Assembly (NCBI GenBank): GCA_041662125.1
Contig: JBAZTA010000008.1
Coordinates: 2,807-66,806 of the forward strand
Reading direction: 5' to 3'
DNA: 64,000 bases
DNA from: Candidatus Omnitrophota bacterium
GTDB taxonomy: Bacteria; Omnitrophota; Gorgyraeia; Gygaellales; Profunditerraquicolaceae
The notes beneath the pieces are model-generated. The model worked only from the letters and a program-made list of their open reading frames with translations, made no database searches and was not told where the DNA came from. The translations under genes were made by a program, and so were the position numbers. Shown here in pieces: positions 3,818 to 39,415 of this stretch; the stretch's first letter is position 1; each line of letters begins with the position of its first letter.

Positions 3818-4077
3818 AAGCGCTCCTCCACGACAAGTATTTAGTTCGTGACCAACAAAACAAATCGCTCAACCTGGTAACTCAGATTTTTCAATAAAGA
3901 CATAGGGCGTCAGTTTGGCGGCTATGTTTCCGGTCCCCTTGGCCATAAAACCGGTGATGGTTTTATATTGCACAATGATTGTTTTTTGGGTAGGGGGTAA
4001 AACAAAAGTGGATGGATTTTAGACATATGAGGCGCTGAGGATAGATCCTGCCGCCTCAGATATTGGAATTAACTGAT

Positions 4078-4296
4078 TCATTTGCCTCTGTAGACTATGA
4101 GCCCGTGACTAAGATCATACGGAGAAAGGGCTACAGTCACACGGTCTCCCAGAAGCACTTTTATCCTGAAACGGGACATCCTTCCCGAAAGTTTGGTCCG
4201 GATGCTCTTGCCATCGTCGGTTTCAACTTGATACATGCCTCCTGAATGCACCTTGACCACAGTTCCTTCAACCTTTACATTGTCATCACGACTCAC
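4078..4296 (-). CDS. infA: Translation initiation factor IF-1
   Basis: 72 aa, near-canonical IF-1 sequence (…EGTVVKVHSGGMYQVETDDGKSIRTKLSGRMSRFRIKVLLGDRVTVALSPYDLSHGLIVYRGK). Confidence 0.95.
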   Translation of the reverse strand: MSRDDNVKVEGTVVKVHSGGMYQVETDDGKSIRTKLSGRMSRFRIKVLLGDRVTVALSPYDLSHGLIVYRGK

Positions 4297-4441
4297 TTAG
4301 TTAACATCTCCTCTCATTTTTTTCGGTTCTTCGAATACTGCTTTAAGCTCCAAAGAAAACACGCCTCACTTGAATCCAAATATTACATTTCCAGCGTCAA
4401 AAGTCTATACACACGTGTATTATTTTATTGAAACTTGAAAA

Positions 4442-5194
4442 TCAAGTCATAGAGAGGTATTCTCGCCTGACTCGTTCCAAATCCTCCGGGGTGTCAACTT
4501 CCACAGAATCTTTATCGGTAATCACTACTTTTATTTTAAAGCCGTTTTCAAGAGCCCTGAGTTGTTCTAATCGCTCGACAAGTTCGAGGTTTCCTACAGG
4601 AAGTTGACTAAATTTTTGCAGAAAATCATTTCTAAATCCGTAGATACCATGGTGTTTGAAATATATCCCCCCGTCTTGCGGACTTCCGGGAAAGGGGACC
4701 GTGGACCTTGAAAAATAAAGGGCAAAACCATCACAATCGAAAACAGTTTTGACGGCGTTAGGATGGTGAATCTCATCTTCACGAACAATTCTGTAAATGA
4801 GCGTGGTCATAGGGATAGATTCATCCTGAATAAGTGGACCAATGACTTCGTCAATCATTTGCACATCCATTAGAGGCTGGTCGCCCTGAACATTCACAAC
4901 AATATCATTTGGAGCCAGTCCCAAGGTTCTGGACGCTTCCGCTACCCTATCAGAGCCTGACGCGTGATCCCCATAAGTCATGATCGCTTCCGCTCCGTAA
5001 TCAACAGCGGCTTTCATAATCCGTTCGGAGTCAGTAGCCACGTAAACGCGAGATAACGATTCACATGCGCTAACTCTTTCCCAAACTCTCACTATCATGG
5101 GTTTCCCGAGAATATCGGCAAGCGGCTTCCCCGGAAATCTCGATGATTCGGCTCGGGCCGGTATAAATCCGACTATTTCTCCCGTCTTTTCCAT
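4442..5194 (-). CDS. kdsB: 3-deoxy-manno-octulosonate cytidylyltransferase (CMP-Kdo synthetase)
   Basis: 250 aa with an N-terminal IPARAESSRFPGKPL motif and overall KdsB architecture. Confidence 0.9.
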   Translation of the reverse strand: MEKTGEIVGFIPARAESSRFPGKPLADILGKPMIVRVWERVSACESLSRVYVATDSERIMKAAVDYGAEAIMTYGDHASGSDRVAEASRTLGLAPNDIVVNVQGDQPLMDVQMIDEVIGPLIQDESIPMTTLIYRIVREDEIHHPNAVKTVFDCDGFALYFSRSTVPFPGSPQDGGIYFKHHGIYGFRNDFLQKFSQLPVGNLELVERLEQLRALENGFKIKVVITDKDSVEVDTPEDLERVRREYLSMT

Positions 5195-5274
5195 TTTGTT
5201 TGTTATTGGTTGTTAGCCTTTCGATACAATAAATCAGGTTTGGGAGCATTTCCCGGTAAAAAAAACGTCTGGAA

Positions 5275-6480
5275 TCAGATGGTTTCACTAGCGGCCTTCG
5301 CCAGTTCTTTCCCTACATTCTCAGCGTCCTCGGACTTCATTCTAAGTGACACCGGAATCACTATGAGACGTTCCAACCATCCTGCTGTTACCGGTAACAA
5401 TTCCCTGGAATAATCCATCTTTTCGGAATAATACGGGGAGCCAAACGGGAATGGACCCGGCCATGCAGTCTTCTTGTTAATCAGATGCTCCCAGTTACCA
5501 AGAAAATGCCAAAGATTGTTTTTGAAACTTATTGCGGAAATCCCCTTTGCCGTGACCTTCTTGTGAAACTCAACGGCGGAGGTGGAGTCGGGGAGAAAAA
5601 AACACACATGGGTATGGCTGTCCTTGCTGTTTTCCGGCAAAGCTCTCATTGTTATCGCCGGAATCTCCTTTACGGCGTCAGATATAACGGTATGACTAGC
5701 TTTCTGGACCGCAAGAATTTTGCTGATGCGACCAAGTTGCGCCAAACCGACAGCGCCCTGAAGCTCATTCATCCGGTAATTGAATCCGAGAAAGCTCCTG
5801 CCCTCTAAGGCTCTACCGACACTGGGATTATGGTCATGGCCGTGGTCAGCGTACTCCGACGCGATCCTGTAGAGATCCGCGTTGTCGGTAGTAATCATAC
5901 CCCCTTCACCAGTGGTAATGGTCTTGTAAAAATCAAATGAAAACGTTCCACATTCTCCAATAGAACCGGCTCCTTTGCCGGCTATCGAGGCGCCAAGAGC
6001 CTGAGCTGTGTCCTCAAGGACTTTCAGTCCCCTCCTGTCAGCGATCTCCTTTATTTCGACTAGCCTTGCCGGTCCTCCTAGCATGTGAACAGGAATTATG
6101 ACCTTTGTCCTTGACGTGATTTTTTTCTCAAGATCGACCGGATCCATGTTCAGTGTCTCATCGATTTCTGCAGGAATAGGGATTGCCCCACATTCGATAA
6201 TAGCTTCAAAGGTCGCCACGAATGTAAATCCTTGTGTTATGACTTCATCGCCGGGCTTAACCCCAAGTGATACCAGAGCCACTTTGAGCGCCGTTGTTCC
6301 CGAAGTCACAGCCTGAGCGTATTTTGTGCCGACAAATTCAGCGAATTTGGTCTCAAAATCACGCACTTTGTAGACGCCTTTTCTTTCGTTAGGGAATTCA
6401 TATCTGAAGAAAATCCCGGTATCGAGAACCTGATTTACCTGTTCCCGCTCCGCGTCTCCTATAAGTTCAAAACCTGGCAT
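5275..6480 (-). CDS. DegT/DnrJ/EryC1/StrS-family PLP-dependent aminotransferase, KdnA-like (putative Kdo 8-aminotransferase)
   Basis: About 400 aa sugar aminotransferase fold (…TSGTTALKVAL…, glycine-rich PLP region). Sits directly between kdsB and an Fe-ADH gene, as in the Shewanella Kdo8N locus. The likely start is the ATG at 6480, preceded by GAGGAGG; the track's 6483 start is a TTG. Confidence 0.75.
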   Translation of the reverse strand: MPGFELIGDAEREQVNQVLDTGIFFRYEFPNERKGVYKVRDFETKFAEFVGTKYAQAVTSGTTALKVALVSLGVKPGDEVITQGFTFVATFEAIIECGAIPIPAEIDETLNMDPVDLEKKITSRTKVIIPVHMLGGPARLVEIKEIADRRGLKVLEDTAQALGASIAGKGAGSIGECGTFSFDFYKTITTGEGGMITTDNADLYRIASEYADHGHDHNPSVGRALEGRSFLGFNYRMNELQGAVGLAQLGRISKILAVQKASHTVISDAVKEIPAITMRALPENSKDSHTHVCFFLPDSTSAVEFHKKVTAKGISAISFKNNLWHFLGNWEHLINKKTAWPGPFPFGSPYYSEKMDYSRELLPVTAGWLERLIVIPVSLRMKSEDAENVGKELAKAASETI

Positions 6481-6575
6481 CAACGCCTCCTCATTTTAGC
6501 TACAGCCTGCAATATTCTATTCGTTAATTGGTCTCTCAAGACTTCGTGAGAAGTTCCAATATATTTTCCCGAAAA

Positions 6576-7742
6576 TCAAGAGCCAAAGGCCGCTTCATAT
6601 ATGGCTTCGGCTTCTTCCGGGCCAAGGTTTCTGGGGTTGTTTTCTACGGGTCTGGTTACCTTGAGAGCCCCTTCTACAAGCATTGGTATGTCGGCTCTAG
6701 GAATACCTAATTCGGACAGGCTCAGAGGAACCCCTATGTCGCCGGCCAATGTTCTGACTGCGTCCACGGCCGCTTCAGCAGCCCATCTCGGAGCCAAACC
6801 TTCAATAGACTCACCCATGCTTTTCGACACAAGAGCAAAGGCCTCTTGAGCAGCCGGCAAGTTGAACTCCATGACGTGAGGTATCAGGATCGCATTAGCC
6901 AGTCCGTGGGGAATTCTATAATGTCCACCCAACGGATACGCGAGGGCGTGCGCCGCCCCAACGCCGGCGTCAGCTAACGCCAACCCGCCGAAAAGACTAG
7001 CAAGCAACATATTCTCTCGGGCGTCAATGTCCGAACCATGGTATACCGCCCGTCTAAGGCTTTTCGAGATGAGTCGCGCGGATGTAAGGCTCAAGGCCTG
7101 GGTAAATACCGACGCTGATCGGCTCGTGACAGATTCGATCGCGTGCGTAAGGGCGTCCATCCCGGTAAAAGCCGTTACCTGTGGTGGGAGAGACAGAGTC
7201 AGTTCAGGGTCCAGCAAAGCGACGTCAGGAAACATGTAAGAGCTGTTGATTCCGCCCTTAGCCTTTGTCAGCCGGTTGGTGAAAACAGCGGTGAAGGTTA
7301 CTTCCGCGCCGGTTCCGGATGTAGTAGGTATCATTATGGTCCGTGAACCAGCCACGGGAACCTTGTTCAGCCCGACATAGTCCTCCGCCTTTCCGTGATT
7401 TGTGACGAGGATAGCGGCAGCTTTTGCGGTATCGAGGGCTGATCCGCCTCCTAAACCGACCACGATATCGGCTCCCAGGTCTCTACCAATCGCCGCAGCG
7501 TCATCAGCGTTGTCAAGATAGGGCTCAGGCTCCACTTTCATGGAGGATTCAACATGAATTCCCGCTTGGCGCAGAGAAACTCTCACCGGTTCTATTAGAC
7601 CGTGACGTTCAAGTTCCGGGTCAGCCACAAGAAGGCAGCTACGAGCGCCAAAATCCTTGGCGATGTTGCCAAGATTTGAAACTGCTCCGCGTCCTGAGAA
7701 AATCTTGGTGCGAAATTGAAAGGTCTTAAGATCTGATAACAT
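6576..7742 (-). CDS. Iron-containing (group III) alcohol dehydrogenase, KdnB-like
   Basis: Fe-ADH signature GGGSALDTAKAAA and His-rich metal site. The likely start is the internal Met at 7742, preceded by GGAG; the ORF extends to 7817. Confidence 0.75.
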   Translation of the reverse strand: MLSDLKTFQFRTKIFSGRGAVSNLGNIAKDFGARSCLLVADPELERHGLIEPVRVSLRQAGIHVESSMKVEPEPYLDNADDAAAIGRDLGADIVVGLGGGSALDTAKAAAILVTNHGKAEDYVGLNKVPVAGSRTIMIPTTSGTGAEVTFTAVFTNRLTKAKGGINSSYMFPDVALLDPELTLSLPPQVTAFTGMDALTHAIESVTSRSASVFTQALSLTSARLISKSLRRAVYHGSDIDARENMLLASLFGGLALADAGVGAAHALAYPLGGHYRIPHGLANAILIPHVMEFNLPAAQEAFALVSKSMGESIEGLAPRWAAEAAVDAVRTLAGDIGVPLSLSELGIPRADIPMLVEGALKVTRPVENNPRNLGPEEAEAIYEAAFGS

Positions 7743-7897
7743 TTGATCTCCACTATTTATCGGGGAATTCGATCCAGACTTCGACAATGCTATAACAAAA
7801 AAGGCGTGGCCTATCAAGCAAAGAAAACTCTTACATTTTATCCTTCGCTATGATAAAAAATTACATTTCAGGTAAGTTAGGTCTGGAGGCATGAAAA

Positions 7898-9433
7898 GTG
7901 CTTGAGATCCTGTCTCGCGGTTTCCGGGACGCTCGACAATATTTGCAGGGTATGAGGACATTGAATGAGGAGAACCTGGGTGAGGCCCTCAAGATTGTCC
8001 GCATGTCATTGCTGGAAGCTGACGTCGAATTTAATGTAACTCGGTCTTTTTTGGACAGGGTCAAAGAGCAGGCTATTGGTGAGATAGTCCAGGTAAAGGT
8101 TAAACACAAGGACAAGAAGCTCCAGGTAACCCCTGGTGACCACTTCATACGCCTTTGCCATGACGAGTTGGTTCGATTAATGGGACCCGCCGACGTCTCC
8201 TTGAGTTTGAAATCCAGACCTGTGTCTTCGATCATGCTGGTCGGGCTTCAGGGATCCGGAAAAACAACTACAGCCGCGAAAATAGCCCGCTTCCTAATCA
8301 AGTCCGGGAAGACTCCCATGCTGGTTGCAGCCGACGTTTATCGACCCGCTGCGGTTGATCAGTTAAAGAAACTCGGCAGTGACCTTAATATACCAGTCTA
8401 TTCCAATGGCTCAGCCAATCCCCCGGAAATATGCGCGGCAGCTCAACAGCAAGCCGCTGAACTAGGCTGTGACGTCACAATTTTTGACACCGCCGGTCGT
8501 CTGACGGTGGACGAAAAACTTATGGAGGAACTCCGAAGGATCCAGGAATTAACTGCGCCGGAAAACGTGCTCCTGGTCTGTGACGCCATGATTGGTCAGG
8601 AATCGGTTAATGTGGCGAACGCCTTTAACCAGCGGATCAACCTGACCGGTTTTATTCTGACGAAACTTGATGGCGACGCGAGAGGCGGAGCCGCCATATC
8701 CATAAAGGAAGCGACAGGGGTTCCGATAAAGTTCCTCGGTATGGGCGAGGGTCTAGACAGGCTTGAGGAGTTTCGCCCTGAAGGACTCGCCTCCCGTATC
8801 CTGGGTATGGGCGATGTTGTAGGGCTGGTTAAAGATTTCGAGGAAGTTGTCGACGAGAAGAAGGCGGAAGAAGACGCCCTTCGCATGCTTCAAGGTAATT
8901 TTACGTTCAATGACTTTCTCTCCCAGGTGAAAACCATTAAAAAAATGGGGCCCCTCAAGGATGTCGTGGAGAAATTACCATTTTTTCAGGGAGGCATTCC
9001 GCAGCAGGCCAATTTTGACGACTATGAACTGGTTAAAATAGAGTCTATCATAAACTCAATGACTCCGGCCGAGCGCAAGGGCCCTGAAATTATAAACGAT
9101 AGCAGGATCGACAGGATAGCAAGAGGAGCTGGTCGAAAAGAAAACGAAGTTCGCGACTTGCTCGTCAAATTCAAGGACATGCGAGACCTTATGGGCGCCA
9201 TGGGGGGCGGCAAGTTGCGGGGCCGATGGAAGCGATTGAAAGGTCTCAAGCGAATGTTCAACGGGGGCATAGGAAATTTGATGGGAGGTGATTCGACAGC
9301 CGTTCCGAGCGCTGAAAATCCATTTGGACTTCCAGAAGTCAGGAACGTGCAACAGGTTTCCAAGAAAAATCTTGAAAAGCAAAGGAAAAAGAACAAGGAA
9401 GCCAAAAAGGCCAGAAAGAAATCCCGAAAATAA
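7898..9433 (+). CDS. ffh: Signal recognition particle protein Ffh, with a lysine-rich C-terminal tail
   Basis: N domain, SRP54 GTPase (GLQGSGKTT, DTAGR, TKLDGDARGG) and methionine-rich M domain, with a GTG start. The C-terminus carries about 50 extra basic residues (…KKNLEKQRKKNKEAKKARKKSRK). Confidence 0.95.
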   Translation: MLEILSRGFRDARQYLQGMRTLNEENLGEALKIVRMSLLEADVEFNVTRSFLDRVKEQAIGEIVQVKVKHKDKKLQVTPGDHFIRLCHDELVRLMGPADVSLSLKSRPVSSIMLVGLQGSGKTTTAAKIARFLIKSGKTPMLVAADVYRPAAVDQLKKLGSDLNIPVYSNGSANPPEICAAAQQQAAELGCDVTIFDTAGRLTVDEKLMEELRRIQELTAPENVLLVCDAMIGQESVNVANAFNQRINLTGFILTKLDGDARGGAAISIKEATGVPIKFLGMGEGLDRLEEFRPEGLASRILGMGDVVGLVKDFEEVVDEKKAEEDALRMLQGNFTFNDFLSQVKTIKKMGPLKDVVEKLPFFQGGIPQQANFDDYELVKIESIINSMTPAERKGPEIINDSRIDRIARGAGRKENEVRDLLVKFKDMRDLMGAMGGGKLRGRWKRLKGLKRMFNGGIGNLMGGDSTAVPSAENPFGLPEVRNVQQVSKKNLEKQRKKNKEAKKARKKSRK

Positions 9434-10747: not shown

Positions 10748-13267
10748 TTAGAGCTTTACCCTAGCGTAAAAGACTCTCTTAAGCAATTCCGTCGAAACAA
10801 TATAACCGATCAAGATCGCACCTAACATGAGAAGAAACGAAAGAGGCAGGGGCTGAAATTCAAGCAAACCAGAGAGAGGCGAAAACGGCAGAAACAATGT
10901 TATGGCAAAGATCAGCAGGGTGGCCATTAAGAGGTACTTTCCCGGTTTGCTTTTGAAGAAGGGTCTCCGACTTCGAATGACAAGCACAATAAGCGATGCG
11001 GAGACAACAGACTCGATGAACCAGCCAGTTCTAAATTGATCCACCGTGGCATGGATAAGAAGTAGACAACCAAAAGTTAGGTAGTCAAACACCGAACTCA
11101 AAAGACCGAACGCTACCATAAACTTCCGAATGAACTGTATATCCCATCGCCGTGGTTGTTCCACCATTTCTATGTCCACGCTGTCAGTAGCGATTGCCAT
11201 TTCGGGAAAGTCCGTCATTAAATTGGTAAGCAAAATTTGCTTTGGTAACAACGGAAGAAAGGGCAGAAAAAGGGATGCGCCCGCCATACTGAACATATTT
11301 CCGAAGTTCGCGCTTGTGGCCATGCACACATACTTAAGAGTGTTGGCAAAGGTCATCCTGCCTGAGTTTACTCCTTGAACAAGCACCTTCAAGTCCTTTT
11401 CCAGCAGAACAATATCAGCCGCTTCCTTGGCTACGTCGGCAGCGCTATCCACAGAAATGCTTACATCTGCAGCATGGAGAGCTGATGCGTCATTGATGCC
11501 GTCACCCATGTAGCCAACGACATTACCGGCCTTCCTGAGAGCCAGAATGATCCGCTCCTTCTGATTCGGTTCGACTTCAGCAAGGACATCCACATCGGTG
11601 ACCCTTGCGAGTAAGGCCTCATTACTCATCTCCCTGAGTTCCGGACCTGTCAGGATCGCGGCATTTGGCAAACCGATCTGCTGACTCAAATTGGCGGCCA
11701 CAAGCCGATTGTCACCAGTAATAATCTTCAGTGAAACACCCAGCCGTTTTAGCAGCCCTATGGTCTCGGCTATGTCAGCTTTTGGCGGATCGAAAAGGAC
11801 CAGGAAACCCAAGAACGTCATCCCAGTTTCCTGGTCCGTTCCGATAGTCAATTCTGGGCCTGCGTCCTTATATGCAATCCCCAAAGTCCGAAAACCCTTG
11901 CTGCTAAATTCCTGAAAGCGCCGCTCGACATCGTCTCGTACCGAGGAAATGTCTTCAATCGTACCGGCGCCGGTTTCGGCCGACGAACACACTTGAAGAA
12001 CATTTCGCAAAGCGCCCTTGGTAATCATAAGATGCTTGTTCCCTTTTGATACCAGGATACTTAATCGTTTGCGCACAAAGTCGTAAGGCGATTCGTCCAG
12101 CTTCTGATACGCGGAAAGGTCGAACTGACGATAAGCTCGAATGCCTTCGTCGATAGGGTTTACGAAACCTGTAACGTAAAAGGCGTTTATATAGGAATAT
12201 AGAAGCGCTTTCGCGCTTGAGACACCGTCCACATTAAGGGCAGAGTGTAAATGAACCACCCCCTCGGTAAGAGTGCCGGTTTTGTCAGAGCAGAGCACAT
12301 TCATGCTCCCGAAGTTTTCAATAGACGCCAGCCTTTTGACGATCACTTTCTCCCGTGCCATGTCTTTGGCTCCATGGGCAAGGTTGATGGTAATGATCGC
12401 AGGTAAGAGTTGAGGGGTCAGTCCAACCGCCAGCGCAAGGGAAAAGAGAAATGACTCTAGGATTGGACGCTGCAAATACGCATTGACGGCAAAGATCGTT
12501 AGCACTAGGATCAGGGTCACTTCCATCAGAAAATACCCGAATCGCCTTACCCCTCTTTCAAATTCGGTTTCCTGCGGCCGTAGCTTAAGCCGCTCAGACA
12601 CCTTACCAAACTCGGTTTGCTTTCCCGTGTTGACAACCAAAGCTTTCCCGCTGCCGCTAACCACGTGTGTTCCCATCCATAGAGCGCCCTTACGTTGAGA
12701 GAGGGGCGTCTCAGTGTCGACAACTTTAACTGATTTCCCAACCGGATAGGTTTCACCTGTCAACGTGGCTTCATCCAAATAGAGAGTATTGGATTCTAGA
12801 ACAAGGCAGTCTCCAGGAATAACATCGCCTGCGCTAACTAAAACCACGTCGCCCGGGACAATCTCTTCCAATGGGATTTTCTTTTCAGTTCCGTCTCGAA
12901 TCACGGGTACTCTTATTTGAACGATTGCCAGCAATTTTTCCACTGCGTCAGCAGCCCCCCGTTCCTGCCAGAATCCGAGAAGGCTGCTTCCCACAACAAT
13001 TACGAGAATAATAATCGCATTTACGTGATCATGGAGAAAGAACGATAATCCGGTGGCGAAAAGAAGGATCAGGATAATTGGACTCTTGAACTGAGACGCC
13101 AGGAGTGTCAACGTATCAGATCTCTTTTTCGGTTTGAGAAGATTAGAGCCGTATAATGAGAGTCGCCGCTGAGCTTCACGGTCAGTCAACCCCATCGGAG
13201 CGCTCTCGAGTCGTTGAAGAATTTCAGCCGATGGGACGCTCCAAAACGCCTCTGGAGATTTGCCCAT
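10748..13267 (-). CDS. Cation-transporting P-type ATPase (P2/P3-type; Ca2+/Mg2+-like)
   Basis: 839 aa with P-type ATPase signatures (CSDKTGTLTEG, MGDGINDASAL) and a Cation_ATPase_N-like N-terminus. Confidence 0.85.
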   Translation of the reverse strand: MGKSPEAFWSVPSAEILQRLESAPMGLTDREAQRRLSLYGSNLLKPKKRSDTLTLLASQFKSPIILILLFATGLSFFLHDHVNAIIILVIVVGSSLLGFWQERGAADAVEKLLAIVQIRVPVIRDGTEKKIPLEEIVPGDVVLVSAGDVIPGDCLVLESNTLYLDEATLTGETYPVGKSVKVVDTETPLSQRKGALWMGTHVVSGSGKALVVNTGKQTEFGKVSERLKLRPQETEFERGVRRFGYFLMEVTLILVLTIFAVNAYLQRPILESFLFSLALAVGLTPQLLPAIITINLAHGAKDMAREKVIVKRLASIENFGSMNVLCSDKTGTLTEGVVHLHSALNVDGVSSAKALLYSYINAFYVTGFVNPIDEGIRAYRQFDLSAYQKLDESPYDFVRKRLSILVSKGNKHLMITKGALRNVLQVCSSAETGAGTIEDISSVRDDVERRFQEFSSKGFRTLGIAYKDAGPELTIGTDQETGMTFLGFLVLFDPPKADIAETIGLLKRLGVSLKIITGDNRLVAANLSQQIGLPNAAILTGPELREMSNEALLARVTDVDVLAEVEPNQKERIILALRKAGNVVGYMGDGINDASALHAADVSISVDSAADVAKEAADIVLLEKDLKVLVQGVNSGRMTFANTLKYVCMATSANFGNMFSMAGASLFLPFLPLLPKQILLTNLMTDFPEMAIATDSVDIEMVEQPRRWDIQFIRKFMVAFGLLSSVFDYLTFGCLLLIHATVDQFRTGWFIESVVSASLIVLVIRSRRPFFKSKPGKYLLMATLLIFAITLFLPFSPLSGLLEFQPLPLSFLLMLGAILIGYIVSTELLKRVFYARVKL

Positions 13268-13291: not shown

Positions 13292-14545
13292 TCAAAGGCC
13301 TGAGGCGTCTTCCAGTTCTATCCTCTCCGGGTCCCCAAACATACGGGCCAGCATTATGCTCAAATATTCCGCCATATTTCTGGTCAGCAGGAAATTCTGA
13401 CGTACCAACTCCTTTGCTTTCTGACCCATCGCATGGGCAACATCTGGGCGACGCAAGAGATATCGGGTTCGCAAAGCAGCCCCTTCTGGAGTCTTAACCA
13501 GGAAACCGGTGTGGTGGTTCACGATCTGAAGACGAATTCCTCCGGTGTCGCCGCCTATTACGGCTTTTCCTTTCCACATGGCCTCGGTGACGGTCAGGCC
13601 GAATCCTTCCTTAAGAGATTTCTGAAGCACAATGTCTGCGCCCCGCTGAAGGGCATTGATGGTAACATGGGCATCCGGCGCTAGGTGGAGCACGTGAATG
13701 TCTTTATCTGCGCCCGCCTCGCTACGAACTTCGGCCAGGACCGATTCGGCTTCAGGGTCATCTGTGGCCCCGCCGCCAGCAAGGACCAACTGAAGCTCTG
13801 GAACGGACGGCTTGATCAATCGATAGGCTCTCACCACGCCGAGAGGGTCCTTGAAGCGATCAAAACGCGAAACCTGGAGCATTATTGGTCTGTCGGGGTC
13901 CAGACCGAATTGGAGTTTGGCGCCTTGGACTTCTTCTTCGGTCAGATCCATGTTTTTTTCGCTGAGAGGATCGATGCTGGGTGGCATCAGATATTGGGTG
14001 TGTGGCAAGGGCTGCGAAAAATCCGCGAGGGAAAAAATACTCGCGTCGTATTCCATGACGAACTTGCGCAAGTACTTCCACAATGGACGATAAGGGTGGC
14101 TCAAGTCGATATGGCATCGCCAGATCCATTTGCCTTTTCGGTTCGGACATGACCTCAACAGAGGAAGTGGCTGAGGGTCGTGTATAAAAACGATGTCTGC
14201 CTCCTCAAGGGTCGAACGGAGCCCTTCCGAGTTCTGGGCGCCGGTTTCCTCGTAAACCTTGAAATCTGTGTCTCCCAGTGGGACGGGTATGCCTTGTAAA
14301 GCGTTGTGGAAGCTCTTTGTAATCTGAAAAAACCGCTCCTCCCCTCGAATAACTTCCCACCGAACATCGAGACCCAGATCGTTCTGAAGTGGAACCAGCT
14401 TGGTTAGGATTTCCGCTACACCTCCACCTACATAGGTGGAGTTAACGTGCACTACTTTGATTCCTCTTAATGGTCTTGCAATCTGACGAAGTCGAGCGAT
14501 CACGTCTTCTCCGGTCACTGCAGCGTAATCTTGAATAGATATCAT
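13292..14545 (-). CDS. treT: Trehalose synthase, glycosyl-transferring (TreT-like, GT4)
   Basis: Close TreT-like sequence (VHVNSTYVGGGVAEIL…RWEVIRGEERFFQITKSFHNALQG…IWRCHIDLS…PPSIDPLSEKNM…) with a GT4 C-terminal domain. The start is the internal Met at 14545, which forms an ATGA overlap with the upstream gene's stop; the track ORF extends to 14647. Confidence 0.75.
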   Translation of the reverse strand: MISIQDYAAVTGEDVIARLRQIARPLRGIKVVHVNSTYVGGGVAEILTKLVPLQNDLGLDVRWEVIRGEERFFQITKSFHNALQGIPVPLGDTDFKVYEETGAQNSEGLRSTLEEADIVFIHDPQPLPLLRSCPNRKGKWIWRCHIDLSHPYRPLWKYLRKFVMEYDASIFSLADFSQPLPHTQYLMPPSIDPLSEKNMDLTEEEVQGAKLQFGLDPDRPIMLQVSRFDRFKDPLGVVRAYRLIKPSVPELQLVLAGGGATDDPEAESVLAEVRSEAGADKDIHVLHLAPDAHVTINALQRGADIVLQKSLKEGFGLTVTEAMWKGKAVIGGDTGGIRLQIVNHHTGFLVKTPEGAALRTRYLLRRPDVAHAMGQKAKELVRQNFLLTRNMAEYLSIMLARMFGDPERIELEDASGL

Positions 14546-15222
14546 TCGGACACTCCCTGAAAAAAATGTACAAACAGATTTGTCAGTTGCGTCCGCAGTT
14601 CCACAAGGGTTACAAAATAGGGATCTACTGACGCCAGTTGTGAGCAAAGGTCCTTATAATGATCACCGAAAGGCCGCAGCCATAAGCGAAAGTCGTCCAT
14701 CATTTCGGGGCTGCGACGTCTGGCGTCAATAAAATGATAGAATAAGCTTCCTCCAGACATTTTGGAAACAGCCTCCACCAATTGCTTCGGTTCTTGAATT
14801 TTTTCTCGGGTATCAAACACGATTACTTGAGAGCTGACAAAATGAAACTGCATGTCAAGCTCGGCCCAGGAAATCGTTTCGGTCTCATCCAACCTCTGTT
14901 CAATCACTTCGAGCATCGCTTGGCGCAAGGATTCCAGATCTGCAAAGGCAGACGGGTCGATAATAGATAGTCGTTCAGCAAGAATATTGTCTTGGAGGGA
15001 ATAGCGAACCCATTCCGCAAAATCGTTGTTGTATTGAGGCTCATCGAACCTGTATCTTAAAAGCCCGCCCCAAAAATGATGATATATGCTCCCGAGAGGG
15101 ATATCCAATAAATGGTCCCTCATTTCTTTCAGGTTTGCGGCCTTCTTGCCTACTGCTATGTTCAGCAGAGCGCAGTCTTTTACGATAAATGGTTCATCGT
15201 TAGAATTTGTGGACATCTTCAC
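14542..15222 (-). CDS. Conserved hypothetical protein translationally coupled to treT
   Basis: 226 aa clean ORF with no recognisable motifs. Its stop overlaps the treT start (ATGA), and it is embedded between treY and treT. Confidence 0.55.
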   Translation of the reverse strand: MKMSTNSNDEPFIVKDCALLNIAVGKKAANLKEMRDHLLDIPLGSIYHHFWGGLLRYRFDEPQYNNDFAEWVRYSLQDNILAERLSIIDPSAFADLESLRQAMLEVIEQRLDETETISWAELDMQFHFVSSQVIVFDTREKIQEPKQLVEAVSKMSGGSLFYHFIDARRRSPEMMDDFRLWLRPFGDHYKDLCSQLASVDPYFVTLVELRTQLTNLFVHFFQGVSE

Positions 15223-15317
15223 CTCTGTAACCTTAGACTATTATTGCAATATAGCTACGAGTTGACCCTCGGCGGTCCGCCACCACGCCGGGGGGAATAC
15301 TCTCGGACTCTCTCGAA

Positions 15318-18134
15318 TCAGGCGGTTTGAGCATAATGCTCCTTTCCTTCTCCCATGAGTAACGCCACAGGAAAACTGTGTAGTACGTCTCCGACAGGCA
15401 GGATATTGCCGGCGGACAGCGCCTCGCCAGTGATAACATTCCGACATTCTAAGGGCGCTCCGTCAGGCATTATCAGCTCAGTGTCCTGCCATACTTGTCT
15501 TCCAAGAGGAAAATCTCCCTCTTGAATTATGTGACTGAGAAGCCTCGGCGCAACGACAATGGCCCATTGATGCTGATACCTTCTGGCAAACGCGATGATG
15601 TGGCTCCTGAATCTTCCCGCCGATTCGAGGGGAACATAAGCGCCCTCCCGGAAAGTCTCTCGATGGCCTCTTCTCGCTTTGAGCGCCAGATAAATGAGAA
15701 AGAGCTTAATCTTTCCATCTTCTCTCGTTCGAAGGAGATCTTGGATAAGTCCGCCAATATCTGAATCTTCCTGCTCTCGGATGCTTGCGAGCATTGAGCG
15801 CATTTTTTCAAAATCTACAGGTCTGCGATTGTCAGGGTCCACTAAGCTTAGATCCCACAACTCAGTCCCTTGATAGAAATCAGGCACGCCAGGTGATGTG
15901 ATTTTAATGAGCGTCTGTGAGAGCGAGTTCAGCATACCGAAATGAGCGACTCTCCTGGTGAAGGGGATCAGTTCTTTCAGGAATGCGTTGGTCTCCGAAC
16001 GGACGAGAATTTTTTCAGCAAATGAAACATAGGCGTCTTCGTACTCGATGTCGGGCTTTAGCCATGCCGTATGGACCTTTGCCTCCCTGACAGCTTTGAC
16101 AATATATTGCTTTATTCTTTCAATGAAATCGGGGTACTCGTCGTCTGAAAATGGAAGCGCTCCGATAAGCGTCTGGTATAAGAAGTACTCGTCGTTTCTA
16201 TCCGGAACGGCTAAGCCGCCGACACGTTTCTTTTTGCCCCTGTTTATCTTGATCCATACCCGGATTTTTTTCAGCCAGTCGTCCGGCATCTCGGACAACA
16301 CATTTATTCTCGCGCGAACGTCTTCGCCCCTTTTAGTATCGTGAGTCGAGGTGGTGTTTAAGGAATCCGGCCACAAGTCTTTCTTCTTCTTGTTGAAGGT
16401 GTGAAATTCTTCAAGCGAGCATCCAAAGTGGTCAGGTCGTCCACCCACCTCATTGAGTGACACAAGCCGGTTGTACACATAGAGTGTCGTATCTTCAACT
16501 CCTTTGGCCATGATCGGCCCGGTAAATTGCTGAAACCTCATGACAAAGAGGATCCAGCCCGTCTTCTCTTCATCTGAGACATAATCTGGGAAGTCCAGGA
16601 GAAGGAACCTTCGCAAGAACGTAAGCCCATGTAATAGGGCGGGGAAATTGGTCCTCGCCCTGTCCACCGCATCCAAAATGTATTTCCTGTCGTTTTCCGA
16701 CACTACCACATGGTTGATATAGGTCCTGTAAACGGGAAACAGCGCAAGAACCTTGGTCAAGGCTCTTTGTAGAGCATTTAGGGTTATGTCGCTTCCATGA
16801 CGGTCCCGGCTGGAGATCTCTTTCAGGAGTTGAGCAAGGTTGTGGACGTCGCTTGCCATGTCTTCCTGGATTATCAATCGCTTGTTCTCGGTCACTACAT
16901 CTTGATACAAGTTCTTCGAGCCCGTTACACTCGAATAGATTCTGCTGAACGCTCGCGCATGCTCCTTTTGACAAAATACTTCGTTTACATAATTCGCAAA
17001 ATCATAGCCGGTCGTTCCCTGCACTGGCCAGAAATGTGGCAGGTCTTCCTTGAGATTGAGTATTTTTTCAACGACGATATAGGTTGTCGGCGCCTTCTTT
17101 CTCAATTCTTGAAGGTAGGTTGTCGGATCGAATAGACCATCGACATGGTCTATTCTTAAACCGGTTACGATTTGTCTTTTAATCAGATCGAAAATCAGGC
17201 CGTGCGTGTGGTTGAAAACGCTCTCGTCTTCCATCCTGAGTGAAATCAGATCATTTATACAAAAAAAGCGGCGATAATTTATTTCGTCCGCTGCCACTTT
17301 CCAAAATGAAAGTCTGAAAAGCTGTTGAGAAAGAAGGTCGTCAAGGGAGTTGAAGCTCTCCGGCTTCCCTTTTTCGCCGTTGAATGCCTTTACATTTTTG
17401 TCGACAAATGTTCTTATTGTGGTATTGGCGCTGTAGAGTTCCCACAGAGTACGGTGAATCAGTTTTATCTGGTTGGAGCGCTCCTCCGCGTCATCGCTGG
17501 AAGAAAGCGTCTTCAACACGTAGAGGATACCCAACACTTTGATAAAGTCGGGATCATCTGCGGCAAGTTTTCTTTTCAAACTGGCCAGATTTTTAAAGAG
17601 ATGGGTATAAGATTCGATTTGCAACGGGAAAGCTAAATCATAGTACGCAACCTTAAAACCGTCAGGACCGTATGTGAGCGCGATTTCTCCATCCTCGAGA
17701 CACTCTCCATAGAACCTGCCAAGGAATGGAGCGAGGAGTCTCTTGTTGGGCCCGTTAGGTGGATGCCCCCAATCCACGTCGAAGAAATTGAAATACTGCG
17801 AGTTGTAACCATTCACAAAGATATCCATCAGAATTCCATTTTCCGAATTCATCGCCATATGATTCGGGACAATGTCTTGAATCCATCCCATGTTGCGCTT
17901 TTGCAGTTCCTCGGAGAGCAGTTCGAGGTCGGAGAAACTTCCCAACTCAGGATTCAACTGATTGGAATCAACCACGTCATAGCCGCTGAGGCTACCCTTT
18001 GCTGCTTTAAAAATAGGAGAAGCGTACAGGTCTGATATGCCCAGGTCCGACAGATAGGGGACGACCGAAATCGCGGACTGAAAACCGAAGGAAGGACTGA
18101 ACTGAATCCGATACGTCGCGGCTGGACTATCCAT
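15318..18134 (-). CDS. treY: Malto-oligosyltrehalose synthase (GH13)
   Basis: 938 aa. The N-terminus YRIQFSPSFGF…VPYLSDLGISDLYASPIFKA…GYDVVD is characteristic of TreY. Confidence 0.85.
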   Translation of the reverse strand: MDSPAATYRIQFSPSFGFQSAISVVPYLSDLGISDLYASPIFKAAKGSLSGYDVVDSNQLNPELGSFSDLELLSEELQKRNMGWIQDIVPNHMAMNSENGILMDIFVNGYNSQYFNFFDVDWGHPPNGPNKRLLAPFLGRFYGECLEDGEIALTYGPDGFKVAYYDLAFPLQIESYTHLFKNLASLKRKLAADDPDFIKVLGILYVLKTLSSSDDAEERSNQIKLIHRTLWELYSANTTIRTFVDKNVKAFNGEKGKPESFNSLDDLLSQQLFRLSFWKVAADEINYRRFFCINDLISLRMEDESVFNHTHGLIFDLIKRQIVTGLRIDHVDGLFDPTTYLQELRKKAPTTYIVVEKILNLKEDLPHFWPVQGTTGYDFANYVNEVFCQKEHARAFSRIYSSVTGSKNLYQDVVTENKRLIIQEDMASDVHNLAQLLKEISSRDRHGSDITLNALQRALTKVLALFPVYRTYINHVVVSENDRKYILDAVDRARTNFPALLHGLTFLRRFLLLDFPDYVSDEEKTGWILFVMRFQQFTGPIMAKGVEDTTLYVYNRLVSLNEVGGRPDHFGCSLEEFHTFNKKKKDLWPDSLNTTSTHDTKRGEDVRARINVLSEMPDDWLKKIRVWIKINRGKKKRVGGLAVPDRNDEYFLYQTLIGALPFSDDEYPDFIERIKQYIVKAVREAKVHTAWLKPDIEYEDAYVSFAEKILVRSETNAFLKELIPFTRRVAHFGMLNSLSQTLIKITSPGVPDFYQGTELWDLSLVDPDNRRPVDFEKMRSMLASIREQEDSDIGGLIQDLLRTREDGKIKLFLIYLALKARRGHRETFREGAYVPLESAGRFRSHIIAFARRYQHQWAIVVAPRLLSHIIQEGDFPLGRQVWQDTELIMPDGAPLECRNVITGEALSAGNILPVGDVLHSFPVALLMGEGKEHYAQTA

Positions 18135-18158
18135 AAATAGACTCTCCGATCTTGTGGT

Positions 18159-20612
18159 TCATGGCAGGTCTGCAATTTTTGAGGTCTCGGGGAGCCGAAT
18201 CCAAAAGTTTCTGGCCAGGACCGTGCAGTCCCGTATCCAATCTTGAGCGTCTTTGTCACCCATGCCGGCCTTCACCTCAAAATCCGGCCAATTTGTGTGA
18301 ACGAGGTTGAAGCACATGTTTTGGGTTTTCCAGATATTAACATCGAACGGTAATGTTCGGACTAGTTTTGCAGCCCTATTCAACCTCTCCATTCGTGAAA
18401 GGTCGTCAGGTTGTTCGAGAAGTTGTTCGGCCAGACGCTCAACGGCGACTGCCAGCAATAATCCGAGAGCTGTCGCATCCAGAGTTGCGCCGGCCAAACG
18501 AGCTTCTTCCAGAAGAGGTCGAACGACTTCGGGCTCTAGCCCGTCCCCTTGAATCGCATCACGAATCTTGGCGTTCAGGCATAAGTCCGCGGCCAAAGCC
18601 AAGCTTTTAGGCGGAGGTGTGTTGGACCCTTTCAGAAAGCGAATTAACGGAGCATGGTGCCCGTAAACGGAGCTATACGCAGCTTCAGCCTCGCGTAGCG
18701 TCGGCTCCATGATCATGTTCAGAACTTTTCGCCGCTCATCGGCAAAAAGCGAATTCAGAGCGTACATCGAACTCCCGAAGTACTTACCCAGCAACAGGAT
18801 GGTCTTCGGGAAGTCAGCGACGGCAAAAGCCTGCGAAATCTCATTGACAAGCGCTCCATATTTTTGCGCTCCCTGATATTCGCCGGTGCCGCAGGCGATA
18901 CTGTGATCACCAAGATGTAATACGCCAAAACATAAACTTATAGATTCGCGCGTAACCTCCGAAATGACCGTTGCCCGCCCGATTACAAGCCGTGAGCCCC
19001 CCGCCTGAAAACTGCGATAGTCCTGCCGGGTGGCAGAATACGAATAGATCGAGCTTCGTTCACCTATATCCTGGAACAGAGAGCTTATGGCATAGTGGGC
19101 CCCCACATTTTTCATGTCGAGCATAGCAGGCCTGACAAATTTCTCATAAATTGCTCGGCCGTCACCGTGTTCGGGTATGTTACTTTTGGCAAGTTCAAGA
19201 CGTTCGAGAAAATCATGCTCGAAGGAAACGCTAAAAAGCTGGTCGGCCAATTGAAGCGCTCTGCCGGCATACTGTATGACTTGAACCGTCTCAATACCCG
19301 AAAGCTCGTCAAAAAACCAGCCACAACTTGTGTACATGAGCATTGCGTGGCGTTGCAACTCCATAAGCTTCAGGACGGTAATTTCTTCACTGGAGTTGAA
19401 CGGCCTGCTAGCGTGACGGCTCAGAAAGGCGCTGACTATGTCGGGTGATCGATCCACGATGATGTCGATGTATTCATCTCGCGCCGCCCACGGATCCTTT
19501 AGAAACCGCCTCGCCAATCGTTCATAAGCCGGATTCACGGCATCTCGGAGCCAGTCCAGCGCGGAGCGCAGGGGGGCTCGCCAAGCCTGGTTCCAACCCC
19601 GATGGCCCCCGCTGTTGCACCCGCAATCCGACCGCCACCGCTCTATTCCGTGAATGCAGCTCCACGAACTGTTCTCAAAGATCTCAACTTCGTGTGTCGG
19701 CGGTTGCTTCTCTAGGTATTCTCCGTAATTCGTCAGTTTGGCATACCCATTGGATTCAATGTAGTGGAGAGCGTAAGCGAGCGCCATGTCGCCACCTCGA
19801 TGGTGATGCCCATAGGTTTCTCCATCCGTTGCGATGGTAACGAGGCAAGGAGACGAATGGTCTTCGGGTAACTCGTACATCAGTCTGTTTGCGAACTCAA
19901 CTCCACTGTTGAGCAATTCTTCAAATGCCAGGGCCTGTGAAATGGGACCGTCGTAGAAGAACAGGTTCATGACGCGGCCTGACGGTAGTGACACTTGGTA
20001 AGCCATGGTATGATCGATTCTTTCACCACTCACATCTTGCCATTCATCACCGCCAATCGGCCGAACCCGATGCGCCTGACCAGGGGAGAGTACGGTAAAT
20101 CTTATTTCGAGCTGCGCCATGATGTCCAGGGTTTCAAGATCTACAGCCGTCTCTGGCAGCCACAGACCTTCCGGCTTGCGTCCAAAGCGGTATTCAAAAT
20201 CCTTAATTCCCCAGATAATCTGGGTTTTCTTGTCACGACTGTTGGCCAGCGGCATGATCATGTGATTGTAGGCTTGGGCCATAGCAGATCCGTGGCCTGA
20301 AAATTTTTCCATGCTCTGCTTGTCCGCCTCCAGAATTGCCGCATACGCGTCGGTGGCGTACTTCTCCATCCAGAGCAATACGGTTGGGCCAAAGTTGAAG
20401 CTTATGCTGGAATAATTGTTCACCAGTTGGACGATTCTTCCCTCGGAGTCCAGGATTCGGGACATCGCGTTTGCAGCGTAGCATTCAGCCGAAATCCGCT
20501 CGTTCCAATCGTGGTAAGGAAATGCTGAGTCCTGAATCTCAATTGCCTCCAGCCAGGGGCTTTCCCTCGGAGGTTGATAAAAGTGCCCATGAATACATAT
20601 GAATCTGTCCAT
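18159..20612 (-). CDS. Glycoside hydrolase family 57 protein (alpha-amylase / 4-alpha-glucanotransferase-like)
   Basis: N-terminal CIHGHFYQPPRE GH57 signature and a long C-terminal extension; 817 aa. Confidence 0.85.
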   Translation of the reverse strand: MDRFICIHGHFYQPPRESPWLEAIEIQDSAFPYHDWNERISAECYAANAMSRILDSEGRIVQLVNNYSSISFNFGPTVLLWMEKYATDAYAAILEADKQSMEKFSGHGSAMAQAYNHMIMPLANSRDKKTQIIWGIKDFEYRFGRKPEGLWLPETAVDLETLDIMAQLEIRFTVLSPGQAHRVRPIGGDEWQDVSGERIDHTMAYQVSLPSGRVMNLFFYDGPISQALAFEELLNSGVEFANRLMYELPEDHSSPCLVTIATDGETYGHHHRGGDMALAYALHYIESNGYAKLTNYGEYLEKQPPTHEVEIFENSSWSCIHGIERWRSDCGCNSGGHRGWNQAWRAPLRSALDWLRDAVNPAYERLARRFLKDPWAARDEYIDIIVDRSPDIVSAFLSRHASRPFNSSEEITVLKLMELQRHAMLMYTSCGWFFDELSGIETVQVIQYAGRALQLADQLFSVSFEHDFLERLELAKSNIPEHGDGRAIYEKFVRPAMLDMKNVGAHYAISSLFQDIGERSSIYSYSATRQDYRSFQAGGSRLVIGRATVISEVTRESISLCFGVLHLGDHSIACGTGEYQGAQKYGALVNEISQAFAVADFPKTILLLGKYFGSSMYALNSLFADERRKVLNMIMEPTLREAEAAYSSVYGHHAPLIRFLKGSNTPPPKSLALAADLCLNAKIRDAIQGDGLEPEVVRPLLEEARLAGATLDATALGLLLAVAVERLAEQLLEQPDDLSRMERLNRAAKLVRTLPFDVNIWKTQNMCFNLVHTNWPDFEVKAGMGDKDAQDWIRDCTVLARNFWIRLPETSKIADLP

Positions 20613-20658
20613 GATCTAATCTTTCTGTTCTAAATTAAAGACCACCACAAGTTCCGAA

Positions 20659-28910: not shown

Positions 28911-29030
28911 GGATAGTTCTCCCATTTTATTTCTTTTGAGTTCAAAGGCCGAGCTAGATCACTTAGCCCATGATTGGAACAGCGAGGCATGCCCTATAAT
29001 TGTCTTAGCTACAAACTCAATCATGTATTG

Positions 29031-38579: not shown

Positions 38580-39334
38580 GCTTGCTGATCGCTATCTAAA
38601 CATGCGATGATTGCTTCGGTAACCCGTTTAGTCTCATTGGGACCTCGAACCGGTATAGAGACAACACCTGCTTCTTCGGCGGGATAGTCGTTTCCCCCCA
38701 CGAACAATGCATCACCTATGAAAATCATCTCTTTCAATGAAATGCCAAGGATGTCTCGCAGCTTTCTGACTCCGTAGGCTTTGTCAATGCCAGGTTTGGT
38801 GACATCAATTGATGTAGCGCCGCCCATTCGGACAGAAAACTCGGGAATAAAAGTGTCAAGGATTGCTTTTATCTTCTTCCGCTTGGTGAAATCAAAGTCC
38901 CACTTGTCCTTTTCTTTCAGGGGGGCCTGCTGACCTAATGCGGAAAATGTTATCTGGCTACCCCGGTCTTCAATTATCTCTCCCCAAACCTTTTCGACCT
39001 TAAAGCCCGCCACTTCGATAGCCTTCTTTAGAGAGCTGATGATTTTCTTTTTTTCGTCCGCGGTGAAATCTTCTGAATAGATCTTTTTCCAGTCCCCTGC
39101 GTATTGGAAGAACTTTGTTCCACATGTGGGAAGGACGGATAGATTCACCAGGCGTTTGTCATGAGGAAGATTTGAGAGCAGTTGTTTTTCAAACTGTGGC
39201 CAATCACCTCCGGAAATCACGGCCACTTTGACAATACCGAGAAGCTTATGCAGCAGCCCCGCCATTTCGGTATCAAGAGCCGATTTACTCTCAGCAAGTG
39301 TGCCGTCCAGATCAAAAACAATTAGCTTTTTCAC
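38576..39334 (-). CDS. HAD-IIB family hydrolase (sugar-phosphate phosphatase; MpgP/OtsB-like)
   Basis: N-terminal DxDGTL motif (IVFDLDGTLAES) and a C-terminal GDxxxD-like motif (IFIGDALFVGGNDYPA), 252 aa. The stop overlaps the GH130 start. Confidence 0.7.
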   Translation of the reverse strand: MKKLIVFDLDGTLAESKSALDTEMAGLLHKLLGIVKVAVISGGDWPQFEKQLLSNLPHDKRLVNLSVLPTCGTKFFQYAGDWKKIYSEDFTADEKKKIISSLKKAIEVAGFKVEKVWGEIIEDRGSQITFSALGQQAPLKEKDKWDFDFTKRKKIKAILDTFIPEFSVRMGGATSIDVTKPGIDKAYGVRKLRDILGISLKEMIFIGDALFVGGNDYPAEEAGVVSIPVRGPNETKRVTEAIIACLDSDQQA

Positions 39335-39415
39335 TATCCTTCCTCCTCTGAATTATTGCTATCTCAATTAGAGTTTTGGACCCGACGAACCACCCCGCAG
39401 TTTCCGTGTTGTAAA

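Follow-up and report, generated by a model that had tools for sequence, protein, structure and literature searches.

Three adjacent genes, found at positions 4442-7742 of a 64,000-nt stretch of the Candidatus Omnitrophota contig JBAZTA010000008.1 (the whole stretch analysed is called here the window), code for a group III iron-type alcohol dehydrogenase (Fe-ADH; ADH for the window protein), a DegT-fold, pyridoxal 5′-phosphate (PLP)-dependent aminotransferase (AT) and KdsB, the CMP-Kdo synthetase (Kdo, 3-deoxy-D-manno-oct-2-ulosonic acid). Sequence comparisons suggest that the three genes make an 8-amino derivative of the Kdo of the lipopolysaccharide (LPS) inner core, either 8-amino-3,8-dideoxy-Kdo (Kdo8N) or a very similar amino-Kdo, through an NAD-type pathway in strict anaerobes. 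The probability of this reading was put at roughly 0.6. The Kdo8N pathway of Shewanella, which relies on the oxidoreductase KdnB and the aminotransferase KdnA, acts on free Kdo before its transfer to lipid IVA (PMC4402001).

The gene triad is confirmed, since Pfam and NCBIfam bear out the three families and kdsB scores above four curated cut-offs. The initial annotation of the window, made from the sequence alone, had described a kdsB, a DegT aminotransferase and a group III Fe-ADH as co-directional and close together; the open reading frames (ORFs), the Pfam matches and the short intergenic spacers (92 nt between the ADH and AT genes, 80 nt between those for AT and KdsB) agree with that description. 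The genes are transcribed from the minus strand in the order ADH, AT, kdsB. A terminator scan predicted no terminator-like sites between them, and they probably form an operon-like module.

Gene context and family membership of the module

Conservation of the module was analysed in the 80 closest loci from one-genome-per-species contigs, of which 78 were informative for the ADH and 71 for kdsB. An ADH of the same type lay directly upstream of the AT in 75 of the 78 loci, while kdsB was found no more than 1.3 kb downstream of the AT in 65 of the 71; the adjacency of ADH and AT is therefore not a matter of chance. The closest loci, at 97% to 60% identity, came from metagenome-assembled genomes assigned to Desulfomonilaceae and 'Syntrophaceae'; Syntrophales and Desulfobulbales came next, at 50-55%. 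From these matches the host was read as a strict anaerobe of the Desulfobacterota (Thermodesulfobacteriota in NCBI naming). The order found in the window, ADH-AT-kdsB-infA, occurs unchanged in cultured Desulfomonile tiedjei DSM 6799, where the triad lies at about 3.4275-3.4447 Mb of CP003360.1. In Syntrophales the order was ADH-AT-hldD-kdsB-acyltransferase, hldD being identified by TIGR02197 (419 bits; cut-off 274.6).

The operons of Synergistota are the strongest evidence tying the ADH-AT pair to Kdo. Three independent contigs from this phylum showed the tightly packed arrangement lpxK-kdsB-kdsA-kdsD-waaA-ADH-AT; the stop codon of the ADH gene overlapped the AT start in two of them, and lay 2 nt upstream of it in the third. 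The ADH of these operons was 47% identical to that of the window, and their kdsB scored above the KdsB thresholds. Strictly anaerobic diderms, including Desulfomonilales, Syntrophales, Desulfobulbales and Synergistota, are predicted to carry the module widely. An ADH-AT pair of bacterial type was also found in a 5.7-kb contig of 0.3x coverage binned as 'Promethearchaeota archaeon' (L066, JAIWHJ010000129.1). This pair is ~70% identical to a representative that also best matches Desulfobulbales loci, and the contig is probably mis-binned.

The sequence of the AT places it in the KdnA family. Among all PDB sequences its best match was Shewanella KdnA (5k8b; 298.6 bits, residues 2-383), and the second best was a perosamine synthetase (181.7 bits, residues 41-260 only). 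The Schiff-base lysine, Lys186, lies in the sequence FSFDFYK, which aligned with SFDSVK of KdnA (family motif SFDxxK). When 56 sequences were aligned, the window AT and KdnA proved to have in common a signature composed of an MPGxE N-terminus, R26, R33, D183, D212-H-G-H215 and W324-H325; this signature was absent from E. coli ArnB, WecE and a LegC-like enzyme. The split between KdnA-like proteins and these generic ones was recovered in 200 of 200 neighbour-joining bootstraps. The AT had been expected to group with KdnA and not with perosamine or other nucleotide-sugar aminotransferases, and both the PDB scores and the bootstraps uphold that expectation. Assignment of the AT to the perosamine, LegC or PseC types was ruled out by the PDB ranking, the NCBIfam scores and the bootstrap split. 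Residues H217, N322 and Y357 were found in all three clades of ATs with a Kdo context (those of Desulfobacterota, Synergistota and the gammaproteobacterial KdnA), and in none of four sequences from nonulosonic-acid clusters (see below). Each alternative topology uniting the window clade with the latter sequences appeared in at most 6 of 200 bootstraps. The AT is therefore proposed as a putative 8-oxo-Kdo:glutamate aminotransferase yielding Kdo8N.

The boundaries of the KdnA family deserve a comment. When 1.8 billion cluster representatives were searched exhaustively, the scores formed a continuum and no clear break set the family apart, for which reason its limits were taken from trees and gene context. 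NCBIfam has no model for KdnA or KdnB, and the Shewanella proteins themselves match generic families only, which makes a curated membership score impossible. The JGI annotation labels ATs of this kind 'kdnA transaminase', while the NCBI label is a generic DegT one.

The product of the window kdsB is a genuine KdsB by its profile scores, as the initial annotation had it. It exceeded the curated NCBIfam cut-offs for NF003952 (304.1 bits; cut-off 193), NF009905 (280.2; 255), NF003950 (276; 234) and TIGR00466 (229.5; 155.2), with a profile match spanning residues 7-245 of 250, and scored merely 45 bits against the PseF model. It was 50% identical to the kdsB adjoining kdnAB in Shewanella and Thiomicrorhabdus. 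The enzyme is proposed to activate Kdo and/or Kdo8N; its family follows from the scores, and this substrate range would be an extension of it.

The position of the ADH is less simple. Its best PDB matches were methanol dehydrogenase, 1,3-propanediol dehydrogenase, Zymomonas ADH2 and FucO (261-213 bits), and database homologues are labelled only 'alcohol dehydrogenase class IV'. By overall similarity it thus appears to belong to a different Fe-ADH branch, and is not a close orthologue of KdnB. The ADH scored below the cut-off of every named Fe-ADH equivalog in NCBIfam (ErcA, 311 bits against 550; SarD, 302 against 700; lactaldehyde reductase, 293 against 523). An ErcA-like regulatory role, suggested by the top NCBIfam match, was discarded on this score and because the catalytic residues are all present: the metal ligands D196, H200, H265 and H279, the GGGS motif (98-101) and the NAD-type D41 are intact, and align with those of KdnB and FucO. 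The ADH has 388 residues and KdnB 356; a segment of ~26 columns in the C-terminal domain is kept in the former and gapped in the latter.

A link between the ADH and KdnB emerged from an alignment of 76 Kdo-context ADHs, two KdnB, one ADH from a nonulosonic-acid cluster and seven generic enzymes (FucO, YqhD, Mdh, DhaT, AdhE, EutG and YiaY). Residues G164, N166 and Y269 were present in 76/76 Kdo-context ADHs, in both KdnB and in the nonulosonic-context ADH, and in none of the seven generic enzymes. The pair E367-N368 was common to Kdo-context ADHs and KdnB, was E-Q in the nonulosonic-context ADH, and was absent from all seven generic proteins. The first three columns correspond to Val164, Val166 and His267 of FucO, so that Val is replaced by Gly, Val by Asn and His by Tyr in the ADH (this shared-pocket criterion was defined from the alignment in the present analysis; the FucO numbering of the literature is the alignment count plus one). 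Val164 and Val166 of FucO line the substrate specificity pocket (PMC10324492), and His267 holds the catalytic water and has been described as conserved in the family (PMC10087678). Asp360, the partner of His267 in FucO, is replaced by Val in the ADH. Window-type ADHs also have a conserved R-P-x-E-N-N-P-R motif that is new with respect to classical group III Fe-ADHs.

Profile and tree comparisons pointed the same way as did the pocket residues. With profiles built from six sequences each, KdnB scored 153-157 bits against window-type ADHs and 105-109 bits, about 48 bits less, against generic Fe-ADHs, while the YqhD control showed no preference (136 and 131 bits, respectively). In a neighbour-joining tree rooted on YqhD, KdnB formed a long branch inside the clade of AT-linked ADHs, and the split between AT-linked ADHs plus KdnB and the generic enzymes was recovered in 115 of 200 bootstraps; KdnB, a long branch, was represented by two sequences only. 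These data give moderate support to the view that the ADH is a less-diverged, full-length form of an AT-linked Fe-ADH lineage with a remodelled pocket, of which KdnB would be a fast-evolving, shortened member. The ADH is accordingly proposed as a putative NAD+-dependent Kdo C8 dehydrogenase that would fill the role of KdnB.

Relatives of KdnA were not restricted to Kdo contexts. The tree placed together the clade of the window AT, that of gammaproteobacterial KdnA, and a large third group whose neighbourhoods are nonulosonic-acid clusters with NeuB, NeuC, PglD-like proteins, nucleotidyltransferases and methyltransferases (loci L087, L089, L090 and L091; Table 1). A cytidylyltransferase adjoins the AT in L087, L089 and L090, and none was seen in the examined part of L091; those found scored below the KdsB cut-offs, and are hence not of the KdsB type. 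The AT of L090 is paired with an Fe-ADH of its own that carries the Gly/Asn/Tyr pocket signature, while that of L087 adjoins a PhyH dioxygenase instead. The L090 Fe-ADH (3879-4991) showed a Gly at the position of the third metal-binding His (H265 in the window protein), which could be an error of the alignment or a change in the metal site. Because of this third group, the KdnA-like family would best be described as one of aminotransferases that act on free ulosonic acids, with the acid in each case read from context. The clusters that contain a KdnA-family AT suggest the existence of undescribed, terminally aminated nonulosonic acids. The JGI label 'kdnA transaminase' is also borne by P0365, the AT within the L090 cluster, and by P0527; P0529 (L088), a cluster mate nearly identical to P0527, is without LPS neighbours. 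A further protein with this label, P0418, lies on a contig too short to judge its neighbourhood. The partner ADH, unlike the AT, was never labelled as such in the annotation. Pathway calls made from the kdnA KEGG Orthology (KO) label are therefore likely to be both over- and under-inclusive.

Proposed route to an amino-Kdo and its alternatives

Kdo has only one primary alcohol, at C8, and Fe-ADHs of the FucO/DhaT/Mdh branch act on primary alcohols. In the pathway proposed, the Fe-ADH, with its metal and NAD sites intact, would oxidise the C8 primary alcohol of free Kdo to an aldehyde using NAD+ and no O2. The KdnA-family AT, as judged from its family membership, would then convert 8-oxo-Kdo to Kdo8N with an amino acid as donor, and this transamination would pull the unfavourable C8 oxidation forward. 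KdsB would activate the resulting sugar with CMP, and WaaA would transfer it to lipid A. All carriers of the window-type ADH seen were strict anaerobes, for which reason an NAD+-linked reaction is predicted; enzymes of the KdnB type came from Shewanella and Thiomicrorhabdus. An oxygen-independent variant of the pathway would be the natural reading of this distribution, drawn from few lineages.

Several observations weigh against this proposal. Kdo8N has been called exclusive to Shewanella, or a hallmark of this genus (PMC4402001, PMC6357163). The identity of the AT to KdnA is modest (38-41%; 38-39% over the full length for the Shewanella and Thiomicrorhabdus proteins), its relatives in nonulosonic-acid clusters are as similar to it as KdnA is (~41%), and the three Kdo-context clades were monophyletic in just 81 of 200 bootstraps, in trees that were neighbour-joining ones with simple distances and a nonulosonic-context sample of four sequences. 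For these reasons, the identity of the AT substrate is taken mainly from gene context. As for the ADH, KdnB (5k8c) ranked 33rd among its PDB matches, with 103 bits against 261 for methanol dehydrogenase, and identity was 29% to KdnB (over ~300 aa) versus 39-41% to Mdh and DhaT and 34% to FucO; the generic Fe-ADHs with which the pocket residues were compared numbered only seven. The initial annotation had likened the ADH to KdnB, and this half of its interpretation did not survive the grouping test that it had itself put forward, the nearest relatives being methanol, 1,3-propanediol and lactaldehyde enzymes. Its underlying functional idea, that of a KdnB-like role, fared better: the shared pocket residues, the profile preference and the nesting of KdnB speak for it, while overall similarity favours DhaT, Mdh and FucO. 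The window kdsB may be just a housekeeping copy. Finally, Desulfomonilales keep a wider synteny (ffh, MBL, CMD, M48, LigT), so that conservation of the module in this order partly reflects relatedness, and three Desulfobulbia loci (L065, L074 and L079) contain an AT with no adjacent ADH.

These three loci belong to Desulfofustis, Desulfocapsaceae and an organism labelled only 'uncultured delta proteobacterium'; panC lies upstream of the AT in L065, and both L065 and L079 have no kdsB within 1.3 kb. The downstream infA, MBL-fold hydrolase, CMD, M48 peptidase and LigT genes were considered as possible parts of the module and rejected, since their synteny holds within Desulfomonilales only and is lost elsewhere while the ADH-AT pair persists.

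The ADH-AT pair might instead aminate another sugar acid, or another position (a nonulosonic acid, a heptose-derived acid or a Kdo derivative of capsule), kdsB being a mere neighbour or activating that product. The ~41% identical ATs located beside NeuB, NeuC, PglD-like proteins and non-KdsB cytidylyltransferases, in one case with an Fe-ADH of their own and in another with a PhyH dioxygenase, speak for such an activity, and so does the low bootstrap value for the Kdo-context ATs. It was nonetheless considered unlikely: the cytidylyltransferase next to the window pair is a KdsB that passes the thresholds, the Synergistota pair sits inside a pure lipid A/Kdo operon, and H217, N322 and Y357 are common to KdnA and the Synergistota ATs and not to the nonulosonic-context relatives. 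The Pfam scan, which covered 41 ORFs of the window and passed over several shorter ones, detected neither NeuB, NeuC nor nucleotide-sugar genes, and the established enzymology of FucO, DhaT and Mdh also points to C8 as the position attacked. Somewhat less probable still is that the three genes have no function in common, the ADH being a general anaerobic alcohol/aldehyde oxidoreductase, the AT serving O-antigen or another glycan, and kdsB a housekeeping gene kept in place by synteny. The nature of the best characterised relatives of the ADH and the synteny of the Desulfomonilales neighbourhood throughout would fit this explanation, and spacers of 80-92 nt are no proof of co-transcription. Against it, the ADH-AT pairing outlasts synteny in Syntrophales, Desulfobulbales and Synergistota, where the different neighbours are LPS genes, and the two genes overlap or nearly so in Synergistota. 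In addition, the ADH lacks the family-conserved His267, has pocket residues found in KdnB, and falls under every curated equivalog cut-off.

An improbable alternative, given even less weight, is that the pair does work on Kdo and the outcome is something other than LPS Kdo8N: a reaction in the catabolic or salvage direction, 8-oxo-Kdo or an 8-carboxy compound as end product, or CMP-Kdo or lipid-linked Kdo as substrate. Sequence fixes neither the direction nor the exact form of the substrate, and Fe-ADHs of this branch usually work as reductases in vivo (FucO; PMC10087678). On the other hand, the homologous AT family of Shewanella acts on free Kdo before lipid IVA transfer (PMC4402001), the translational coupling of AT to ADH argues for an aldehyde-to-amine sequence, and the location beside kdsB and waaA argues for biosynthesis. 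Formation of an amino-Kdo for the LPS inner core remained the preferred reading.

A broader proposal, to which somewhat less than an even chance was given, is that amino-Kdo is a widespread inner-core modification of the LPS of strictly anaerobic diderms, made without O2 by a distinct NAD-linked Fe-ADH lineage that also gave rise to KdnB. An Fe-ADH (or a dioxygenase), a KdnA-family AT and a CMP-sugar synthetase might then make up a general cassette for the terminal amination of free ulosonic acids, including undescribed amino-nonulosonic acids. No sugar of LPS is more conserved than Kdo, and its 8-amino form has been described as the hallmark of a single genus (PMC6357163, PMC4402001). If the proposal is correct, a cationic inner-core modification that affects sensitivity to polymyxin and bile salts in Shewanella would be common in environmentally dominant anaerobes, the 'missing kdnB' of pathway reconstructions that find only kdnA would be explained, and an O2-independent route to Kdo8N could be used for glyco-engineering and for interpreting Kdo-analogue labelling. 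The comparison also calls for caution with the kdnA KO label, which is spreading onto ATs within nonulosonic-acid clusters. Shewanella mutants show heightened sensitivity to polymyxin and to bile salts (PMC4402001); an effect on polymyxin resistance in the window organism would be pure extrapolation from them.

Gene starts, neighbouring genes and other features of the window

The coordinates of the module, its neighbours and the nonulosonic-cluster loci are collected in Table 1. The ORF lister placed the ADH start at a TTG (7817); the ATG at 7742 is most likely the true start, in view of the length of the homologues (386-388 aa) and of a GGAG located 6 nt upstream. For the AT, the ATG at 6480 was favoured over the TTG at 6483 given by the ORF lister, as the homologues have 401 aa and begin with MPGFE, and a strong Shine-Dalgarno sequence (GAGGAGG) is present. 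A scan for consensus promoters found 10 promoter-like sites where 4.9 were expected; the matches were only weak, at most ~2x the expectation from shuffled sequences, and the promoter between ADH and ffh is for this reason a presumed one. Scans for tRNA genes and Rfam families detected nothing in the window.

Table 1. Coordinates of the module, of its neighbours in the window (window positions) and of loci with a related AT in nonulosonic-acid clusters (positions in each locus)
Feature	Coordinates	Strand	Description
Group III iron-type alcohol dehydrogenase (ADH)	7742..6576	minus	388 aa; first gene of the module; Pfam Fe-ADH and ADH_Fe_C
DegT-fold PLP aminotransferase (AT), KdnA family	6480..5275	minus	401 aa; second gene; Pfam DegT_DnrJ_EryC1 (3e-88)
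kdsB, CMP-Kdo synthetase	5194..4442	minus	250 aa; third gene; NCBIfam KdsB models
Intergenic region, ADH/ffh divergent	7743..7897		155 nt; presumed promoter region of the module; read from sequence
ffh	7898..9433	plus	divergent neighbour of ADH
infA	4296..4078	minus	next gene after kdsB
Nonulosonic-cluster AT locus L087	4220-6871		KdnA-family AT ~41% identical to window AT
Nonulosonic-cluster AT locus L089	5001-7765		KdnA-family AT ~41% identical to window AT
Nonulosonic-cluster AT locus L090	2737-7458		KdnA-family AT ~41% identical to window AT
Nonulosonic-cluster AT locus L091	807-6447		KdnA-family AT ~41% identical to window AT

The 41 ORFs scanned against Pfam include trehalose/glycogen enzymes, P-type ATPases, phosphoketolase plus acetate kinase and signalling proteins; no further LPS genes were found among them. 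The storage-carbohydrate genes form a run at 13292-24629 (-) coding for a TreT-type trehalose synthase, a DUF5752 protein, two proteins of the alpha-amylase family, a GH57 + DUF3536 protein and a glycogen-debranching enzyme. Genes for a GH130 phosphorylase, a phosphomannomutase-like protein, a mannose-6-phosphate isomerase and a class I aldolase lie at 37449-41454. Three P-type cation ATPases are encoded in the 64 kb (10748-13267, 34385-37417 and 41742-44321 (-)), one as a fusion with a DUF2254 membrane domain. At 44309-48052 (-), a phosphoketolase gene is located directly upstream of that for acetate kinase, a central metabolism that looks unusual for an anaerobe resembling Desulfomonilaceae. 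The window also codes for an Fe/Mn superoxide dismutase at 59816-60439 (-), in a presumed strict anaerobe; its neighbours include a large PAS/Cache histidine kinase (56375-59287) and a response regulator with an HD domain (54875-55960). Finally, a gene at 26166-28925 (-) codes for a 919-aa protein without a Pfam match that has a signal-like hydrophobic segment at its N-terminus and a very long, low-complexity C-terminal half rich in Q, E, R and K; this gene accounts for the extreme AT skew (-0.37) at 26-28 kb.

Comparison with known systems

The nucleotide-sugar aminotransferases of the DegT family (perosamine synthetase 3bn1, ArnB, WecE, LegC/PseC) have the PLP fold and the Schiff-base Lys motif in common with the window AT. 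Similarity to them amounted to 180-200 bits across the N-terminal two thirds, leaving residues 1-40 and the C-terminal domain of the window AT unaligned. Those enzymes act on a nucleotide sugar, while KdnA-type enzymes act on the free sugar acid. As to the classical group III Fe-ADHs (E. coli FucO, Klebsiella DhaT 3bfj, Bacillus-type methanol dehydrogenase 8zrl), they match the ADH in length and in the four metal ligands, and also have both its GGGS motif and its NAD-type Asp. They differ in that the window-type ADH is always paired with a KdnA-family AT, scores below all curated equivalog cut-offs and has lost their His267/Asp360 pair, which is Tyr/Val in the ADH. The modules of the nonulosonic-acid clusters (L087, L089, L090 and L091) use an AT of the same family and would follow the same logic, in which a free ulosonic acid is modified and then activated with CMP; they differ in their NeuB, NeuC, PglD-like and methyltransferase neighbours, in a cytidylyltransferase that is not KdsB, and in an AT without H217, N322 and Y357.

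The closest known system is the Kdo8N pathway of Shewanella oneidensis, composed of KdnB (EC 1.1.3.48, PDB 5k8c) and KdnA (EC 2.6.1.109, PDB 5k8b), with kdsB adjacent. Both modules combine an oxidoreductase of the Fe-ADH fold, a KdnA-family PLP aminotransferase and KdsB, and the AT aligns with KdnA end to end. The arrangement was at first said to be exactly that of Shewanella, which is not the case: the order is kdnA-kdnB-kdsB there and ADH-AT-kdsB in the window, with an ADH from another Fe-ADH branch. KdnB is catalogued by its enzyme name as an 8-oxidase that uses O2, whereas the carriers of the window-type ADH are strict anaerobes. The Kdo8N product has been demonstrated in Shewanella, where the residue is 0.98 Da lighter than ordinary Kdo and its C8 gives a 13C signal near 44 ppm (PMC6357163); the window module is known from its genes.

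In the papers searched, Kdo8N and the biology of kdnAB were described for no organism other than Shewanella, the sole other mention being an automatic annotation in Leptospira. A canonical kdnA-kdnB-kdsB cluster followed by waaA was nevertheless present in Thiomicrorhabdus (L083/L084, 6001-10509), and KdnA homologues with >70% identity were found in Hydrogenovibrio, Galenea, Corallincola, Aliikangiella, Paraferrimonas and Kangiellaceae. At the level of genomes, Shewanella is thus not the only genus with the pathway. The suggestion in the initial annotation that Kdo8N may occur outside this genus gains from the Kdo context, the AT and kdsB, and is less new than it seemed. Novelty is tempered by the automatic kdnA labels that JGI already gives to the AT and by the canonical kdnA-kdnB-kdsB(-waaA) clusters of other Gammaproteobacteria. 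What the present comparison would add is the identification of the partner ADH and its link to KdnB, the prediction of the module in anaerobic phyla, and the apparent recurrence of the cassette logic in nonulosonic-acid clusters.

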